From Escherichia phage phiX174, in the sequence record EF380025.1: a stretch of DNA of 5,386 bases; one strand, given 5' to 3'. The position numbers were made by a program, and so were the translations under genes. Every line of letters starts with the position of its first letter. Position 1 is the stretch's first letter. Shown here piece after piece: positions 1-5,386 of the stretch. Under the pieces are notes generated by a model that worked only from the letters and a program-made list of their open reading frames with translations, ran no database searches and was not told the DNA's origin.

Positions 1-51
1 GAGTTTTATCGCTTCCATGACGCAGAAGTTAACACTTTCGGATATTTCTGA
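1..51 (+). CDS. B: Internal scaffolding protein B, 3' terminal portion (wraps from 5075..5386); stop TGA at 49-51
   Basis: Frame continues GCA(5384-5386) then EFYRFHDAEVNTFGYF and TGA at 49-51; the stop overlaps the K start (TGATG). Confidence 0.93.
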   Translation, partial: EFYRFHDAEVNTFGYF

Positions 52-136
52 TGAGTCGAAAAATTATCTTGATAAAGCAGGAATTACTACTGCTTGTTTA
101 CGAATTAAATCGAAGTGGACTGCTGGCGGAAAATGA
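1..136 (+). CDS. A: Replication initiation protein A, 3' terminal portion (wraps from 3981..5386); stop TGA at 134-136
   Basis: Frame continues from codon 5385-5386-1 (CAG) with no stop until TGA at 134-136; the end is ...KSKWTAGGK. The stop overlaps the C start (ATGA at 133-136). Confidence 0.93.
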   Translation, partial: SFIASMTQKLTLSDISDESKNYLDKAGITTACLRIKSKWTAGGK

Positions 137-221
137 GAAAATTCGACCTATCCTTGCGCAGCTCGAGAAGCTCTTACTTTGCGACCTTTCGTCATCAACT
201 AACGATTCTGTCAAAAACTGA
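51..221 (+). CDS. K: Protein K (small nonessential membrane-associated protein), overlapping the end of A and the start of C
   Basis: ATG at 51, TGA at 219-221; translation MSRKIILIKQELLLLVYELNRSGLLAENEKIRPILAQLEKLLLCDLSSSTNDSVKN (56 aa), near-identical to phiX174 K. Confidence 0.9.
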   Translation: MSRKIILIKQELLLLVYELNRSGLLAENEKIRPILAQLEKLLLCDLSSSTNDSVKN

Positions 222-369
222 CGCGTTGGATGAGGAGAAGTGGCTTAATATGCTTGGCACGTTCGTCAAGGACTGGTTTAGATATGAGTCACATTTTGTT
301 CATGGTAGAGATTCTCTTGTTGACATTTTAAAAGAGCGTGGATTACTATCTGAGTCCGATGCTGTTTAA
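133..369 (+). CDS. C: Protein C (DNA packaging / ssDNA synthesis switch); 78 aa here, ending at TAA 367-369, which is 8 codons short of the canonical 86-aa C
   Basis: ATG at 133 (ATGA overlap with the A stop); ORF track 115..369 is in the same frame; translation MRKFDLSLRSSRSSYFATFRHQLTILSKTDALDEEKWLNMLGTFVKDWFRYESHFVHGRDSLVDILKERGLLSESDAV then TAA. Canonical phiX174 C continues QPLIGKKS to TGA at 391-393. Confidence 0.88.
   Translation: MRKFDLSLRSSRSSYFATFRHQLTILSKTDALDEEKWLNMLGTFVKDWFRYESHFVHGRDSLVDILKERGLLSESDAV
320..349 (+). promoter_or_regulatory. Promoter pD (sigma70-like), inside gene C upstream of D
   Basis: TTGACA at 320-325, 18-nt spacer, TACTAT at 344-349; predicted start near 356-358, consistent with the D mRNA start I recall for phiX174. 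Confidence 0.6.
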
Positions 370-389
370 CTATTAATAGGTAAGAAATC

Positions 390-848
390 ATGAGTCAAGT
401 TACTGAACAATCCGTACGTTTCCAGACCGCTTTGGCCTCTATTAAGCTCATTCAGGCTTCTGCCGTTTTGGATTTAACCGAAGATGATTTCGATTTTCTG
501 ACGAGTAACAAAGTTTGGATTGCTACTGACCGTTCTCGTGCTCGTCGCTGCGTTGAGGCTTGCGTTTATGGTACACTGGACTTTGTGGGATACCCTCGCT
601 TTCCTGCTCCTGTTGAGTTTATTGCTGCCGTCATTGCTTATTATGTTCATCCCGTTAACATTCAAACGGCCTGTCTCATCATGGAAGGCGCTGAATTTAC
701 GGAAAACATTATTAATTGCGTCGAGCGTCCGGTTAAAGCCGCTGAATTGTTCGCGTTTACCTTGCGTGTACGCGCAGGAAATACTGACGTTCTTACTGAC
801 GCAGAAGAAAACGTGCGTCAAAAATTACGTGCAGAAGGAGTGATGTAA
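390..848 (+). CDS. D: External scaffolding protein D
   Basis: ORF track 390..848, 152 aa; MSQVTEQSVRFQTALASIKLIQ... matches phiX174 D almost exactly (one difference recalled, Gly to Cys in NIINCVERP); AGGT Shine-Dalgarno-like motif at 378-381. Confidence 0.96.
   Translation: MSQVTEQSVRFQTALASIKLIQASAVLDLTEDDFDFLTSNKVWIATDRSRARRCVEACVYGTLDFVGYPRFPAPVEFIAAVIAYYVHPVNIQTACLIMEGAEFTENIINCVERPVKAAELFAFTLRVRAGNTDVLTDAEENVRQKLRAEGVM
568..843 (+). CDS. E: Lysis protein E (MraY inhibitor), fully embedded in D in the +1 frame
   Basis: ATG at 568 preceded by GAGG (555-558); 91 aa MVHWTLWDTLAFLLLLSLLLPSLLIMFIPLTFKRPVSSWKALNLRKTLLIASSVRLKPLNCSRLPCVYAQEILTFLLTQKKTCVKNYVQKE; stop TGA 841-843. The ORF track entry 520..843 is the same frame extended upstream to a TTG. 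The N-terminal transmembrane segment and Pro21 are intact. Confidence 0.93.
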   Translation: MVHWTLWDTLAFLLLLSLLLPSLLIMFIPLTFKRPVSSWKALNLRKTLLIASSVRLKPLNCSRLPCVYAQEILTFLLTQKKTCVKNYVQKE

Positions 849-964
849 TGTCTAAAGGTAAACAACGTTCTGGTGCTCGCCTTGGTCGTCCGCAGCCGTT
901 GCGAGGTACTAAAGGCAAGCGTAAAGGCGTTCGTCTTTGGTATGTAGGTGGTCAACAATTTTAA
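848..964 (+). CDS. J: Small basic DNA-binding (DNA packaging) protein J
   Basis: ATG at 848 overlapping the D stop (TAATG), AGGAG at 836-840; 38 aa MSKGKQRSGARLGRPQPLRGTKGKRKGVRLWYVGGQQF; TAA at 962-964. Below the ORF-track length cutoff. Confidence 0.92.
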   Translation: MSKGKQRSGARLGRPQPLRGTKGKRKGVRLWYVGGQQF

Positions 965-968
965 TTGC

Positions 969-984
969 AGGGGCTTCGGCCCCT
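969..984 (+). terminator. J-F intergenic stem-loop (T_J-type mRNA hairpin; weak terminator / stabilising element)
   Basis: AGGGGC (969-974), TTCG tetraloop (975-978), GCCCCT (979-984): a perfect 6-bp GC-rich stem. No following U-run, so termination would be partial. Confidence 0.7.
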
Positions 985-1000
985 TACTTGAGGATAAATT

Positions 1001-2284
1001 ATGTCTAATATTCAAACTGGCGCCGAGCGTATGTCGCATGACCTTTCCCATCTTGGCTTCCTTGCTGGTCAGATTGGTCGTCTTATTACCATTTCAACTA
1101 CTCCGGTTATCGCTGGCGACTCCTTCGAGATGGACGCCGTTGGCGCTCTCCGTCTTTCTCCATTGCGTCGTGGCCTTGCTATTGACTCTACTGTAGACAT
1201 TTTTACTTTTTATGTCCCTCATCGTCACGTTTATGGTGAACGGTGGATTCAGTTCATGAAGGATGGTGTTAATGCCACTCCTCTCCCGACTGTTAACACT
1301 ACTCGTTCTATTGATCATGCCGCTTTTCTTGGCACGATTAACCCTGATACCAATAAAATCCCTAAGCATTTGTTTCAGGGTTATTTGAATATCTATAACA
1401 ACTATTTTAAAGCGCCGTGGATGCCTGACCGTACCGAGGCTAACCCTAATGAGCTTAATCAAGATGATGCTCGTTATGGTTTCCGTTGCTGCCATCTCAA
1501 AAACATTTGGACTGCTCCGCTTCCTCCTGAGACTGAGCTTTCTCGCAAAATGACGACTTCTACCACATCTATTGACATTATGGGTCTGCAAGCTGCTTAT
1601 GCTAATTTTCATACTGACCAAGAACGTGATTACTTCATGCAGCGTTACCGTGATGTTATTTCTTCATTTGGAGGTAAAACCTCTTATGACGCTGACAACC
1701 GCCCTTTACTTGTCATGCGCTCTAATTTCTGGGCATCTGGCTATGATGTTGATGGAACTGACCAAACGTCGTTAGGCCAGTTTTCTGGTCGTGTTCAACA
1801 GACCTATAAACATTCTGTGCCGCGTTTCTTTGTTCCTGAGCATGGCACTATGTTTACTCTTGCGCTTGTTCGTTTTCCGCCTACTGCGACTAAAGAGATT
1901 CAGTACCTTAACGCTAAAGGTGCTTTGACTTATACCGATATTGCTGGCGACCCTGTTTTGTATGGCAACTTGCCGCCGCGTGAAATTTCTATGAAGGATG
2001 TTTTCCGTTCTGGTGATTCGTCTAAGAAGTTTAAGATTGCTGAGGGTCAGTGGTATCGTTATGCGCCTTCGTATGTTGCTCCTGTTTATCACCTTCTTGA
2101 AGGCTTCCCATTCATTCAGGAACCGCCTTCTGGTGATTTGCAAGCACGCGTACTTATTCGCCACCATGATTATGACCAGTGTTTCCAGTCCGTTCAGTTG
2201 TTGCAGTGGAATAGTCAGGTTAAATTTAATGTGACCGTTTATCGCAATCTGCCGACCACTCGCGATTCAATCATGACTTCGTGA
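1001..2284 (+). CDS. F: Major capsid protein F
   Basis: ORF track 1001..2284, 427 aa; GAGGA at 990-994; translation is collinear with phiX174 F over its full length, with roughly a dozen substitutions relative to my recollection. Confidence 0.97.
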   Translation: MSNIQTGAERMSHDLSHLGFLAGQIGRLITISTTPVIAGDSFEMDAVGALRLSPLRRGLAIDSTVDIFTFYVPHRHVYGERWIQFMKDGVNATPLPTVNTTRSIDHAAFLGTINPDTNKIPKHLFQGYLNIYNNYFKAPWMPDRTEANPNELNQDDARYGFRCCHLKNIWTAPLPPETELSRKMTTSTTSIDIMGLQAAYANFHTDQERDYFMQRYRDVISSFGGKTSYDADNRPLLVMRSNFWASGYDVDGTDQTSLGQFSGRVQQTYKHSVPRFFVPEHGTMFTLALVRFPPTATKEIQYLNAKGALTYTDIAGDPVLYGNLPPREISMKDVFRSGDSSKKFKIAEGQWYRYAPSYVAPVYHLLEGFPFIQEPPSGDLQARVLIRHHDYDQCFQSVQLLQWNSQVKFNVTVYRNLPTTRDSIMTS

Positions 2285-2315
2285 TAAAAGATTGAGTGTG
2301 AGGTTATAACGTCGA

Positions 2316-2343
2316 AGCGGTAAAAATTTTAATTTTTGCCGCT
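2316..2343 (+). promoter_or_regulatory. F-G intergenic hairpin (region of the primosome assembly site for complementary-strand synthesis and of terminator T_F)
   Basis: Near-perfect inverted repeat AGCGGTAAAAATT / AATTTTTGCCGCT (one G-T wobble) at 2316-2343, in the 110-nt F-G intergenic region, which is the largest noncoding stretch. Confidence 0.6.
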
Positions 2344-2394
2344 GAGGGGTTGACCAAGCGAAGCGCGGTAGGTTTTCTGCTTAGGAGTTTAATC

Positions 2395-2922
2395 ATGTTT
2401 CAGACTTTTATTTCTCGCCACAATTCAAACTTTTTTTCTGATAAGCTGGTTCTCACTTCTGTTACTCCAGCTTCTTCGGCACCTGTTTTACAGACACCTA
2501 AAGCTACATCGTCAACGTTATATTTTGATAGTTTGACGGTTAATGCTGGTAATGGTGGTTTTCTTCATTGCATTCAGATGGATACATCTGTCAACGCCGC
2601 TAATCAGGTTGTTTCTGTTGGTGCTGATATTGCTTTTGATGCCGACCCTAAATTTTTTGCTTGTTTGGTTCGCTTTGAGTCTTCTTCGGTTCCGACTACC
2701 CTCCCGACTGCCTATGATGTTTATCCTTTGGATGGTCGCCATGATGGTGGTTATTATACCGTCAAGGACTGTGTGACTATTGACGTCCTTCCCCGTACGC
2801 CGGGCAATAATGTTTATGTTGGTTTCATGGTTTGGTCTAACTTTACCGCTACTAAATGCCGCGGATTGGTTTCGCTGAATCAGGTTATTAAAGAGATTAT
2901 TTGTCTCCAGCCACTTAAGTGA
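2395..2922 (+). CDS. G: Major spike protein G
   Basis: ATG at 2395 preceded by AGGAG (2383-2387); 175 aa [28 protein letters not shown]... matches phiX174 G. The ORF track entry 2350..2922 is the same frame extended upstream to a TTG. Confidence 0.96.
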
Positions 2923-2930
2923 GGTGATTT

Positions 2931-3917
2931 ATGTTTGGTGCTATTGCTGGCGGTATTGCTTCTGCTCTTGCTGGTGGCGCCATGTCTAAATTGTTTGGAG
3001 GCGGTCAAAAAGCCGCCTCCGGTGGCATTCAAGGTGATGTGCTTGCTACCGATAACAATACTGTAGGCATGGGTGATGCTGGTATTAAATCTGCCATTCA
3101 AGGTTCTAATGTTCCTAACCATGATGAGGCCGCCCCTAATTTTGTTTCTGGTGCTATGGCTAAAGCTGGTAAAGGACATCTTGAAGGTACGTTGCAGGCT
3201 GTCACTTCTGCCGTTTCTGATAAGTTGCTTGATTTGGTTGGACTTGGTGGCAAGTCTGCCGTTGATAAAGGAAAGGATACTCGTGATTATCTTGCTGCTG
3301 CATTTCCTGAGCTTAATGCTTGGGAGCGTGCTGGTGCTAATGCTTCTTCTGCTGGTATGGTTGACGCCGGATTTGAGAATCAAAAAGAGCTTACTAAAAT
3401 GCAACTGGACAATCAGAAAGAGATTGCCGAGATGCAAAATGAGACTCAAAAAGAGATTGCTGGCATTCAGTCGGCGACTTCACGCCAGAATACGAAAGAC
3501 CAGGTATATGCACAAAATGAGATGCTTGCTTATCAACAGAAGGAGTCTACTGCTCGCGTTGCGTCTATTATGGAAAACACCAATCTTTCCAAGCAACAGC
3601 AGGTTTCCGAGATTATGCGCCAAATGCTTACTCAAGCTCAAACGGCTGGTCAGTATTTTACCAATGACCAAATCAAAGAAATGACTCGCAAGGTTAGTGC
3701 TGAGGTTGACTTAGTTCATCAGCAAACGCAGAATCAGCGGTATGGCTCTTCTCATATTGGCGCTACTGCAAAGGATATTTCTAATGTCGTCACTGATGCT
3801 GCTTCTGGTGTGGTTGATATTTTTCATGGTATTGATAAAGCTGTTGCCGATACTTGGAACAATTTCTGGAAAGACGGTAAAGCTGATGGTATTGGCTCTA
3901 ATTTGTCTAGGAAATAA
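2931..3917 (+). CDS. H: Minor spike / DNA pilot protein H
   Basis: ORF track 2931..3917, 328 aa; GAGG at 2921-2924; Gly/Ala-rich N-terminus [16 protein letters not shown] and the Q-rich coiled-coil region match phiX174 H. Confidence 0.96.
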
Positions 3918-3926
3918 TCGTCAGGA

Positions 3927-3955
3927 TTGACACCCTCCCAATTGTATGTTTTCAT
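3927..3955 (+). promoter_or_regulatory. Promoter pA candidate in the H-A intergenic region
   Basis: Perfect -35 TTGACA at 3927-3932; a weak -10-like hexamer (TTTCAT at 3950-3955, 17-nt spacer). The -10 assignment is uncertain. Confidence 0.45.
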
Positions 3956-3980
3956 GCCTCCAAATCTTGGAGGCTTTTTT
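3956..3980 (+). terminator. H-A intergenic hairpin plus T-run (T_H-type intrinsic terminator); the 3' arm contains the gene A Shine-Dalgarno sequence
   Basis: GCCTCCAA (3956-3963), loop ATC, TTGGAGGC (3967-3974), followed by TTTTTT (3975-3980), immediately before the A start codon at 3981. Confidence 0.75.
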
Positions 3981-5386
3981 ATGGTTCGTTCTTATTACCC
4001 TTCTGAATGTCATGCTGATTATTTTGACTTTGAGCGTATCGAGGCTCTTAAACCTGCTATTGAGGCTTGTGGCATTTCTACTCTTTCTCAATCCCCAATG
4101 CTTGGTTTCCATAAGCAGATGGATAACCGCATCAAGCTCTTGGAAGAGATTCTGTCTTTTCGTATGCAGGGCGTTGAGTTCGATAATGGTGATATGTATG
4201 TTGACGGTCATAAGGCTGCTTCTGACGTTCGTGATGAGTTTGTATCTGTTACTGAGAAGTTAATGGATGAATTGGCACAATGCTACAATGTGCTCCCCCA
4301 ACTTGATATTAATAACACTATAGACCACCGCCCCGAAGGGGATGAAAAATGGTTTTTAGAGAACGAGAAGACGGTTACGCAGTTTTGCCGCAAGCTGGTT
4401 GCTGAACGCCCTCTTAAGGATATTCGCGATGAGTATAATTACCCCAAAAAGAAAGGTATTAAGGATGAGTGTTCAAGATTGCTGGAGGCCTCCACTATGA
4501 AATCGCGTAGAGGCTTTACTATTCAGCGTTTGATGAATGCAATGCGACAGGCTCATGCTGATGGTTGGTTTATCGTTTTTGACACTCTCACGTTGGCTGA
4601 CGATCGATTAGAGGCGTTTTATGATAATCCCAATGCTTTGCGTGACTATTTTCGTGATATTGGTCGTATGGTTCTTGCTGCCGAGGGTCGTAAGGCTAAT
4701 GATTCACACGCCGACTGCTATCAGTATTTTTGTGTGCCTGAGTATGGTACAGCTAATGGCCGTCTTCATTTCCATGCGGTGCACTTTATGCGGACACTTC
4801 CTACGGGTAGCGTTGACCCTAATTTTGGTCGTCGGGTACGCAATCGCCGCCAGTTAAATAGCTTGCAAAATACGTGGCCTTATGGTTACAGTATGCCCAT
4901 CGCAGTTCGCTACACGCAGGACGCTTTTTCACGTTCTGGTTGGTTGTGGCCTGTTGATGCTAAAGGTGAGCCGCTTAAAGCTACCAGTTATATGGCTGTT
5001 GGTTTCTATGTGGCTAAATACGTTAACAAAAAGTCAGATATGGACCTTGCTGCTAAAGGTCTAGGAGCTAAAGAATGGAACAACTCACTAAAAACCAAGC
5101 TGTCGCTACTTCCCAAGAAGCTGTTCAGAATCAGAATGAGCCGCAACTTCGGGATGAAAATGCTTACAATGACAAATCTGTCCATGGAGTGCTTAATCCA
5201 ACTTACCAAGCTGGGTTACGACGCGACGTCGTTCAACCAGATATTGAAGCAGAACGCAAAAAGAGAGATGAGATTGAGGCTGGGAAAAGTTACTGTAGCC
5301 GACGTTTTGGCGGCGCAACCTGTGACGACAAATCTGCTCAAATTTATGCGCGCTTCGATAAAAATGATTGGCGTATCCAACCTGCA
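3981..5386 (+). CDS. A: Replication initiation protein A (HUH rolling-circle endonuclease), 5' portion; continues across the circular junction to 1..136 (513 aa in total)
   Basis: ATG at 3981 preceded by GGAGG (3969-3973). I translated the frame codon by codon to 5386 with no stop. HUH-type motif RLHFHAVHF and the paired catalytic tyrosines in YVAKYVNKK are present. The origin lies inside the gene. Missing from the ORF track only because it has no stop inside the linear window. Confidence 0.95.
   Translation, partial: MVRSYYPSECHADYFDFERIEALKPAIEACGISTLSQSPMLGFHKQMDNRIKLLEEILSFRMQGVEFDNGDMYVDGHKAASDVRDEFVSVTEKLMDELAQCYNVLPQLDINNTIDHRPEGDEKWFLENEKTVTQFCRKLVAERPLKDIRDEYNYPKKKGIKDECSRLLEASTMKSRRGFTIQRLMNAMRQAHADGWFIVFDTLTLADDRLEAFYDNPNALRDYFRDIGRMVLAAEGRKANDSHADCYQYFCVPEYGTANGRLHFHAVHFMRTLPTGSVDPNFGRRVRNRRQLNSLQNTWPYGYSMPIAVRYTQDAFSRSGWLWPVDAKGEPLKATSYMAVGFYVAKYVNKKSDMDLAAKGLGAKEWNNSLKTKLSLLPKKLFRIRMSRNFGMKMLTMTNLSMECLIQLTKLGYDATSFNQILKQNAKREMRLRLGKVTVADVLAAQPVTTNLLKFMRASIKMIGVSNL
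4299..4328 (+). other. Viral (+) strand origin of rolling-circle replication (30-nt A-protein recognition and nick site; nick between G4305 and A4306)
   Basis: Exact match to the canonical origin CAACTTGATATTAATAACACTATAGACCAC located inside gene A. Confidence 0.9.
4497..5386 (+). CDS. A*: Protein A* (internal in-frame start within A; continues across the junction to 1..136, 341 aa in total)
   Basis: In-frame ATG at 4497 (tcc act ATG aaa tcg) in the A reading frame, at the canonical phiX174 A* position. Assigned by established knowledge rather than an independent sequence signal. Confidence 0.8.
   Translation, partial: MKSRRGFTIQRLMNAMRQAHADGWFIVFDTLTLADDRLEAFYDNPNALRDYFRDIGRMVLAAEGRKANDSHADCYQYFCVPEYGTANGRLHFHAVHFMRTLPTGSVDPNFGRRVRNRRQLNSLQNTWPYGYSMPIAVRYTQDAFSRSGWLWPVDAKGEPLKATSYMAVGFYVAKYVNKKSDMDLAAKGLGAKEWNNSLKTKLSLLPKKLFRIRMSRNFGMKMLTMTNLSMECLIQLTKLGYDATSFNQILKQNAKREMRLRLGKVTVADVLAAQPVTTNLLKFMRASIKMIGVSNL
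4863..4892 (+). promoter_or_regulatory. Promoter pB candidate inside gene A upstream of B
   Basis: TTGCAA at 4863-4868, 18-nt spacer, TACAGT at 4887-4892. A weak match; placed here partly because phiX174 is known to have a B promoter inside A in this vicinity. Confidence 0.3.
5075..5386 (+). CDS. B: Internal scaffolding protein B, 5' portion; embedded in gene A in a different frame; continues across the junction to 1..51 (120 aa in total)
   Basis: ATG at 5075 preceded by AGGAG (5063-5067); frame open to 5386; translation MEQLTKNQAVATSQEAVQNQNEPQLRDENAYNDKSVHGVLNPTYQAGLRRDVVQPDIEAERKKRDEIEAGKSYCSRRFGGATCDDKSAQIYARFDKNDWRIQPA... matches phiX174 B. Confidence 0.95.
   Translation, partial: MEQLTKNQAVATSQEAVQNQNEPQLRDENAYNDKSVHGVLNPTYQAGLRRDVVQPDIEAERKKRDEIEAGKSYCSRRFGGATCDDKSAQIYARFDKNDWRIQPA

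Follow-up and report, generated by a model that had tools for sequence, protein, structure and literature searches.

The stretch of DNA analysed here (the window; 5,386 nucleotides) is almost certainly the genome of EF380025, a laboratory-evolved clone from the study of Silander, Tenaillon and Chao (2007; PLoS Biol 5:e94), which describes hydroxylamine-mutagenised phiX174 bottleneck lines with the accessions EF380009-EF380032. It is already known and published, and there is nothing new within it; the preliminary description had likewise expected no novel system, and what it had before it was a known phiX174 laboratory genome.

The phiX174 records align to positions 1-5386 of the window as a single ungapped piece on the plus strand, starting from record position 1, with identities of 98.9-99.2%. 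Against the reference NC_001422, the 5386 bases are 99.0% identical across 1-5386 and collinear from base 1, with no indels, and it is this near-identity to an annotated reference that settles the gene identities. One strand holds the eleven genes A, A*, B, K, C, D, E, J, F, G and H with their known overlaps kept; all of them are open at the reference coordinates, and the origin of viral-strand synthesis is intact (Table 1). When the end of the window is joined to its start, the reading frames of A (513 aa), A* (341 aa) and B (120 aa) run on uninterrupted, and the junction (...CCTGCA/GAGTTT...; CCAACCTGCAGAGTTTTATC) restores a PstI site, the sole CTGCAG in the circular sequence, which is the conventional Sanger coordinate origin. 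The in-frame closure of A, A* and B and the rebuilt PstI site support circularity at the sequence level, and the window appears to be the whole circular genome of phiX174, a single-stranded DNA, given in the orientation usual in databases. The preliminary description had proposed as much, viz., a whole phiX174-type genome making one turn of a circle, with A, A* and B split in frame over the window ends; both the 5386-base ungapped match to phiX174 records and the unbroken joined frames bear it out.

Table 1. Positions of genes and other features in the window.
Feature	Position	Strand	Remarks
Gene A, 5' part	3981..5386	+	NC_001422 annotation; replication initiator, 513 aa across the junction
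Gene A*, start	4497, in the frame of A	+	NC_001422 annotation
Genes A and A*, 3' end, wrapped from the window end	1..136	+	Frame closes; stop at 134-136
Gene B, 5' part	5075..5386	+	Rest at 1-51; internal scaffolding protein, 120 aa; overlaps A in a different frame
Gene K	51..221	+	56 aa
Gene C	133..369	+	Stop at 367-369 (Q79*, 367 C>T), 8 codons lost; reference gene end is 393
Gene D	390..848	+	External scaffolding protein, 152 aa
Gene E	568..843	+	Lysis protein, 91 aa; within D in a different frame
Gene J	848..964	+	DNA-binding core protein, 38 aa
Gene F	1001..2284	+	Major capsid protein, 427 aa; 12 aa changes from the reference
Gene G	2395..2922	+	Major spike protein, 175 aa
Gene H	2931..3917	+	Pilot/minor spike protein, 328 aa; 6 aa changes
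30-base origin of viral-strand synthesis, inside gene A	4299..4328	+	Exact match to CAACTTGATATTAATAACACTATAGACCAC; at the reference coordinate, unchanged
PstI site CTGCA/G, first five bases	5382..5386		Base 1 completes the site; conventional phiX174 numbering origin

The biology of such a genome is well understood. phiX174 (Sinsheimervirus phiX174, Microviridae) has eleven overlapping genes, all on one strand. Its replication is of the rolling-circle type and is driven by protein A, which nicks a 30-base origin located in gene A itself; B and D act as scaffolds for the capsid, which consists of F, G and H, the DNA is packed by J, and lysis of the cell is due to E. Going by this established knowledge, the phage of the window would be expected to work as phiX174 does. 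The annotation of NC_001422 puts the rep_origin at 4306. Relative to that reference, the amino acid changes number 12 in F, six in H, five in E (R3H, S30L, M50I, T72I and R89Q), four in A, three in J (K6Q, P12L and A28V), two in B (H31Y and A52V, both private to the window) and one each in D, G and K, namely G110C, which is common to the window and the isolate 3F90 (EF380024), the lineage-wide N113D, and P48S (192 C>T), private to the window. Gene A, translated over the junction, has no internal stop, and gene E is intact, without the am3 stop. The change G575A, which yields R3H in E, is the published Epos pos6 allele (PMC4825663). Gene C is eight codons shorter than in NC_001422, a truncation common to the laboratory lineage as a whole and likewise annotated in the other inspected records of the EF3800xx series, that of the laboratory-adapted ancestor AP100 among them; the changes at 371 and 373 sit downstream of its new stop.

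The attribution to EF380025 comes from the proteins. The window versions of A, B, K, E, J, F and H are exactly ABN49798.1, ABN49800.1, ABN49801.1, ABN49804.1, ABN49805.1, ABN49806.1 and ABN49808.1, each of them found on one 5386-base contig, and in a set of some 15 billion proteins, those unique to the window were confined to a single contig. EF380024 accounts for ABN49787-97 and EF380026 for ABN49809-19, leaving a gap of ABN49798-ABN49808; the seven matched proteins fill this gap and therefore point to the EF380025 record. Of the series EF380009-EF380032, EF380025 alone is absent from the phage collection used for comparison, the other 23 being present. By accession order, the name of the isolate should be 10D90.

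The exact protein matches pin 32 of the 54 variants that separate the window from the reference, including 10 of the 24 private ones; the base-level match to EF380025 covers these protein-pinned sites, the 22 others being silent, intergenic or in genes C and G. A close sibling or edited copy of EF380025, i.e., a clone of the same population or a version altered at silent sites, would share this identity at the protein level (for 7 of the 11 proteins) and could differ at the 22 unpinned variants. We nevertheless regard it as very improbable: all seven proteins match exactly, with 10 private missense changes included; the private changes outside the pinned set resemble those within it in their C>T character, and many of these unpinned changes lie at sites hit in sister lines; and EF380025 is the single record of the series that the comparison collection lacks.

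The attribution to EF380025 accords with the differences from the reference. The window departs from NC_001422 by 54 substitutions (42 transitions and 12 transversions), which fall into three layers: 10 changes of AP100, 20 shared as a set only with 3F90, and 24 private to the window. Among the private changes, 19 (79%) are C>T, none is G>A and two are A>C (binomial p = 8e-7 for 19 versus 0). The private C>T changes recur in independent lines at 10 of their 19 sites, as against 24% expected (p = 0.006), and they are depleted in missense changes (7/19 versus 73% expected; p = 0.001). Such depletion marks the phage as viable and under selection. We also considered whether the 54 differences could stem from random sequencing errors or from noise introduced in silico, and rejected this, given that they are missense-depleted, strand-asymmetric and recurrent at sites changed in sister lines.

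The first layer places the window in a laboratory pedigree. It has 10 of the 11 AP100 changes (367T, 833A, 1650G, 1727T, 2085T, 2731G, 2811T, 3121A, 3139A and 4518A); the eleventh, 1460G, is absent from both the window and 3F90. These two have 21 differences from AP100 in common, viz., 20 derived changes and the reference base at 1460, and in a neighbour-joining tree the window is the sister of 3F90 within the EF3800xx series. Hence, the window appears to derive from the AP100 background via an undeposited ancestor common to 3F90. The extent and kind of its private divergence are those of its relatives: lines begun from AP100 show 21-39 changes after 90 transfers, a range that takes in the 24 of the window, and C>T makes up 81-92% of the changes in each of the ten AP100-derived sister lines examined. 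The published figure is 89% C>T under 250 mM hydroxylamine with a mutT host (Silander et al., 2007). With DEL1 and DEL4, the window shares only 1304C, 1609T and 3339A.

The preliminary description had put forward two other origins. Its first hypothesis was carry-over of the phiX spike-in control. An assembly contaminated with this Illumina sequencing-control DNA would account for a length of exactly 5386 bases and for the three control SNPs, out of five, that the window has (833A, 2731G and 2811T); such carry-over is also very common, a phiX contig being present in at least 120 genome assemblies. However, all 108 usable carry-over contigs have 587A, 833A, 2731G, 2811T and 3133T, and in 103 of them these five are the only differences, whereas the window is without 587A (the am3 lysis-gene stop) and 3133T and has 51 changes beyond the control SNPs. 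The three SNPs that it does share are also in AP100, so that ancestry explains the sharing. Further, the carry-over contigs have arbitrary breaks, with 57 in minus and 51 in plus orientation and none starting at position 1, whereas the window is in plus orientation and begins at the database origin. A 21-mer specific to the window had no match in genome contigs, where the reference 21-mer is found in at least 120 assemblies; it had none in metagenome contigs either, a weaker result for being obtained without a positive control, and in a scan of IMG/VR the reference phiX 21-mer was unmatched as well as that of the window, which makes this negative uninformative. With 587A and 3133T missing and 53 sites differing from the control-type record CP004084, we consider carry-over exceedingly unlikely. 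The accompanying remark that the window has more substitutions than separate the control from the reference was correct, the count being 54 against NC_001422, as compared with five in 103 of the 108 carry-over contigs.

The other origin suggested there, a natural member of the phiX174 clade, either S13-like or a wild isolate, draws on the fact that 54 substitutions exceed the typical variation of laboratory stocks and that a few variant bases equal those of S13, e.g., 1242G, 3104T, 4604T and 5185T. It did not survive comparison with actual relatives: between S13 (M14428) and the window there are 146 differing sites, and NC37 and PJNS001 are 96.5% and 95.1% identical to the window, respectively, whereas laboratory strains are nearer, at 42-54 differences, and the 40 best matches all lie at 98.9-99.2%, little different from standard phiX174. 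The presence of derived AP100 laboratory mutations and the nesting of the window in an experimental pedigree speak against a natural origin in the same way, as does the private spectrum, in which 19 C>T against no G>A matches chemical mutagenesis of packaged single-stranded DNA; the restriction of the unique proteins to a single contig is a further point. The probability of a wild source is accordingly as negligible as that of carry-over. The actual origin is almost certainly a third option beyond those two, a hydroxylamine-mutagenised, laboratory-evolved line of the published experiment, as the derived laboratory mutations of the window and its place in that pedigree indicate.

The three layers of the genotype differ in content. 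The ten changes of the laboratory-adapted ancestor AP100 include the stop that drops the last eight codons of gene C, and the 20 changes shared as a set only with 3F90 are mainly missense in capsid proteins. The 24 private changes fit repeated hydroxylamine treatment of packaged plus-strand DNA, together with a mutT host for growth and small bottlenecks at passage. The identity of the window, its place in the pedigree, its mutation spectrum and its intact genes are matters of direct observation; the particular mutagen behind individual changes is something we infer, as is the name of the isolate.

The stem shared by the window and 3F90 is of a different character. Only 38% of it is C>T, because of which it misfits simple hydroxylamine mutagenesis; 16 of its 21 differences are missense, eight of them in the capsid protein F. 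R3H in E, a lysis up-mutation, also belongs to the stem, and so does the reference base at 1460. The published experiment employed two low-fitness ancestors, one of which founded both extra N=10 lines (Silander et al., 2007). By sequence, the pair matching DEL4 is 10E90 and 10F90, and the ancestor of the window is a different, undeposited one; this, like the low C>T share of the stem, counts against the main reading. We tentatively raise the possibility, which we rate at somewhat under even, that the 21-difference stem represents a third low-fitness ancestor that was never deposited; its changes may be the trace of harmful capsid mutations that were fixed on purpose and then compensated. The window and 3F90 would in that case constitute a replicate pair in which to study the compensatory evolution of the phiX174 capsid, which would annotate an experiment already published rather than reveal a new biological system.

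More generally, a sequence that looks like phiX174 with too many SNPs need not be either control carry-over or a wild relative. Quick discriminators are the five control SNPs (am3 at 587 above all), the break-point and strand of the contig, and a plus-strand spectrum of C>T only. For triage, the window may be put aside, its laboratory phage genome being known and already published; for those who build contamination filters or screen with them, its record, 99% identical to phiX, makes a useful edge case.

Set against the known members of the clade, the window is like the Sanger strain (NC_001422/J02482) in length, gene order, coordinates, origin and PstI numbering origin. S13 (M14428) belongs to the same species-level clade and also has 5386 bases, at a distance nearly three times that between the window and phiX174. 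The Illumina control (CP004084 and the 108 contigs) is phiX174 as is the window, with the am3 stop and 3133T found only in the control. The closest record available, EF380024 (isolate 3F90), is 99.2% identical to the window without indels. Of the 54 changes that set the window apart from the reference, this isolate has 30, among them the stop in gene C, R3H in E and eight in the F protein; the two differ from each other at 42 sites, 24 of these changes being confined to the window and 18 to 3F90, each set about 80% C>T. With EF380025 itself, all seven tested proteins are identical and no difference was detected at the protein level.

phiX174 is the best-studied small phage, and the window has the layout of its complete genome. 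A search of the phage collection returned 161 phage records covering at least 80% of the window, and phiX174 records match it end to end as a single ungapped piece on the plus strand, starting from record position 1, at 98.9-99.2% identity. Relative to the reference NC_001422, it carries 54 substitutions (42 transitions and 12 transversions, with C>T making up 31 of the 54) and no indels, and the coordinates of all 11 genes coincide with those of the reference. Once its end is joined to its start, genes A, A* and B read through without interruption, at 513, 341 and 120 aa, respectively, and the junction (...CCTGCA/GAGTTT...) restores the sole PstI site of the genome, the point from which phiX174 is conventionally numbered. 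The preliminary description had recognized a whole phiX174-type genome of 5386 bases with genes A, A* and B wrapping its ends in frame, and it is confirmed in every respect that can be seen in the sequence.

Coordinates of the replication feature in the window
Feature	Position	Remarks
Origin of viral-strand synthesis	4299-4328	30 bases, intact

One source proposed for such a genome was carry-over of the sequencing spike-in control. As a stand-in for the control, we used CP004084, a phiX genome deposited alongside a honeybee-gut bacterium (Enterobacteriaceae), which differs from NC_001422 at 587, 833, 2731, 2811 and 3133. The five control SNPs are confirmed in this record, including am3, the stop in the lysis gene E created by 587A, which accounts for the late annotated start of gene E there. 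Scanning one-genome-per-species assemblies with a reference 21-mer detected phiX contigs in at least 120 species-representative assemblies of unrelated bacteria and archaea, with 108 contigs usable. All 108 possess 587A, 833A, 2731G, 2811T and 3133T, and 103 show exactly five differences from NC_001422, against the 54 of the window, in line with the earlier impression that it had more substitutions than separate control and reference. These contigs are found in both orientations (57 minus strand, 51 plus), their break-points are spread round the circle, and none of the 108 begins at position 1; they are 5386-5513 bases long, which suggests that assemblers left k-mer overlaps where the circle closes. 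The window, in contrast, begins at the database origin, has neither 587A nor 3133T, and is separated from CP004084 by 53 differences. Hence, we reject control carry-over, as the am3 and 3133T alleles missing from the window are universal among the 108 usable carry-over contigs.

A window-specific 21-mer spanning 1304C, 1308C and 1315T had no matches in the genome contigs, where the reference 21-mer is found, and, as a weaker negative, none in metagenome contigs. Its lack of matches in the IMG/VR viral contigs is uninformative, as the reference 21-mer is also unmatched there; that set seems to have been cleared of phiX by filtering, and phiX-like negatives in it therefore mean little. Separately, four phage-database records under other names (CP004084.1, MT947439.1, PP417747.1 and MZ417522.1) are essentially phiX174 at 99%. 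The names besides that of CP004084 are Protaetiibacter phage SSC1, Enterobacteria phage ST5386 and Mycolicibacterium phage J1, the last a record of 24,953 bases with a whole phiX inside it at 169-5631; all three have the look of carried-over control or of chimeric assemblies.

The best match of the window is EF380024 (isolate 3F90), a member of the series EF380009-EF380032, which the study of Silander, Tenaillon and Chao (2007; PMC1845161) deposited. In that experiment, a phiX174 clone was first adapted over 100 transfers at 32 C. Lines next went through 90 transfers with bottlenecks of 3 to 100, with 250 mM hydroxylamine applied to the phage at each transfer and an E. coli mutT strain as host; low-fitness ancestors were obtained by picking small plaques, and by the authors' count C>T made up 89% of substitutions (PMC1845161). 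Of the 11 changes of the laboratory-adapted ancestor AP100 (EF380009), the window has 10, including 367 C>T, which ends gene C eight codons early and is annotated as the same truncation in the inspected series records. It has a further 21 differences from AP100 in common with 3F90, and after their split 24 private changes arose in the window and 18 in 3F90. A neighbour-joining tree likewise places the two as sisters nested inside the series.

The phage collection holds every one of the 24 accessions of this series except EF380025. By exact-sequence look-up among ~15 billion proteins, with each match on a single contig of 5386 bases, the A, B, K, E, J, F and H proteins of the window are identical to ABN49798, 49800, 49801, 49804, 49805, 49806 and 49808. 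These fall exactly between the proteins of EF380024 (ABN49787-97) and EF380026 (ABN49809-19), and the identities fix 32 of the 54 variants, 10 of them from the private set of 24. From the exact protein matches and the accession gap, we conclude that the window is EF380025. Accession order implies the isolate name 10D90, which fits uneasily because 10E90 and 10F90 pair with the deposited low-fitness ancestor DEL4 by sequence, and the paper derives both extra N=10 lines from one such ancestor (PMC1845161).

The private changes comprise 19 C>T, two A>C, two T>C, one G>T and no G>A. An asymmetry of this kind, 19 C>T to 0 G>A (p = 8e-7), is expected when a cytosine-specific mutagen attacks packaged plus-strand DNA, whereas damage to double-stranded DNA would yield both types. 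A>C changes are typical of a mutT host, to which the two private ones may be attributed. From this spectrum and the methods of the paper, we infer a mutagen origin for the private changes of the window; their number, 24, falls inside the range of 21-39 for AP100-started lines after 90 transfers. Of the 19 sites with a private C>T, 10 are hit in independent lines as well (24% expected, p = 0.006), which would reflect genuine mutational hot spots or parallel selection rather than noise. One such site, 2312, in the F-G intergenic region next to hairpin-forming sequence downstream of gene F, changed independently in 30C90 and 100A90, a recurrence that may reflect a hot spot or selection. Random C>T would be expected to change a protein, in one frame or another, in 73% of cases; among the 19, only 7 do so (p = 0.001), and this depletion points to purifying selection on the phage.

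Missense changes are significantly more frequent on the stem common to the window and 3F90 than on the private branch (Fisher p = 0.03). They make up 16 of the 21 changes of the stem, where F has eight of them and J and H have two apiece; only 38% of the 21 are C>T. Its overlap with the low-fitness ancestors DEL1 and DEL4 is limited to 1304C, 1609T and 3339A, so small that the founder of the pair was probably not deposited. The pair has the reference base at 1460, whereas 1460G is found in AP100 and the rest of the lines, and 3339A (H D137N) is missing from the deposited AP100 record although each of the 21 derived lines has it; therefore, either the deposited clone is not the exact founder or the founding stock was polymorphic. 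H D137N and J A28V (930) recur in a separate adaptation experiment (PMC3324380). Also on the stem is G575A, silent in gene D and R3H in gene E, the published Epos pos6 allele, with which more E is made and phiX174 can plate on slyD hosts (PMC4825663; PMC3324380); where fitness is low, it may make up for slow growth. Gene E is intact in the window and, judged from its sequence, predicted to be lysis-competent. Three C>T changes lie within the seven bases 367-373, of which 367 is lineage-wide and 371 and 373 are common to the window and 3F90; the latter two come after the new stop of gene C and therefore fall in sequence shortly before gene D that is no longer translated. Line 100A90 acquired 371T independently. 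In the sister line 10A90 (EF380013), the annotation shortens gene K to 51..161, against 51..221, and the line was viable all the same.

The origin of the window is thus neither of the two first proposed: it is a laboratory genome that was known and published before, a full phiX174 with nothing novel in it, and the preliminary description was right to expect no novel system. The alignments which that description had suggested, to NC_001422, control-type phiX and phage S13, give 54, 53 and 146 differences, respectively. An S13-like or wild source is rejected on the distance to S13 and on the identities of the wild isolate NC37 (96.5%) and Salmonella phage PJNS001 (95.1%) to the window; laboratory-type phiX174 is nearer, the best 40 of the 161 matches all being little different from standard phiX174 at 98.9-99.2% identity.
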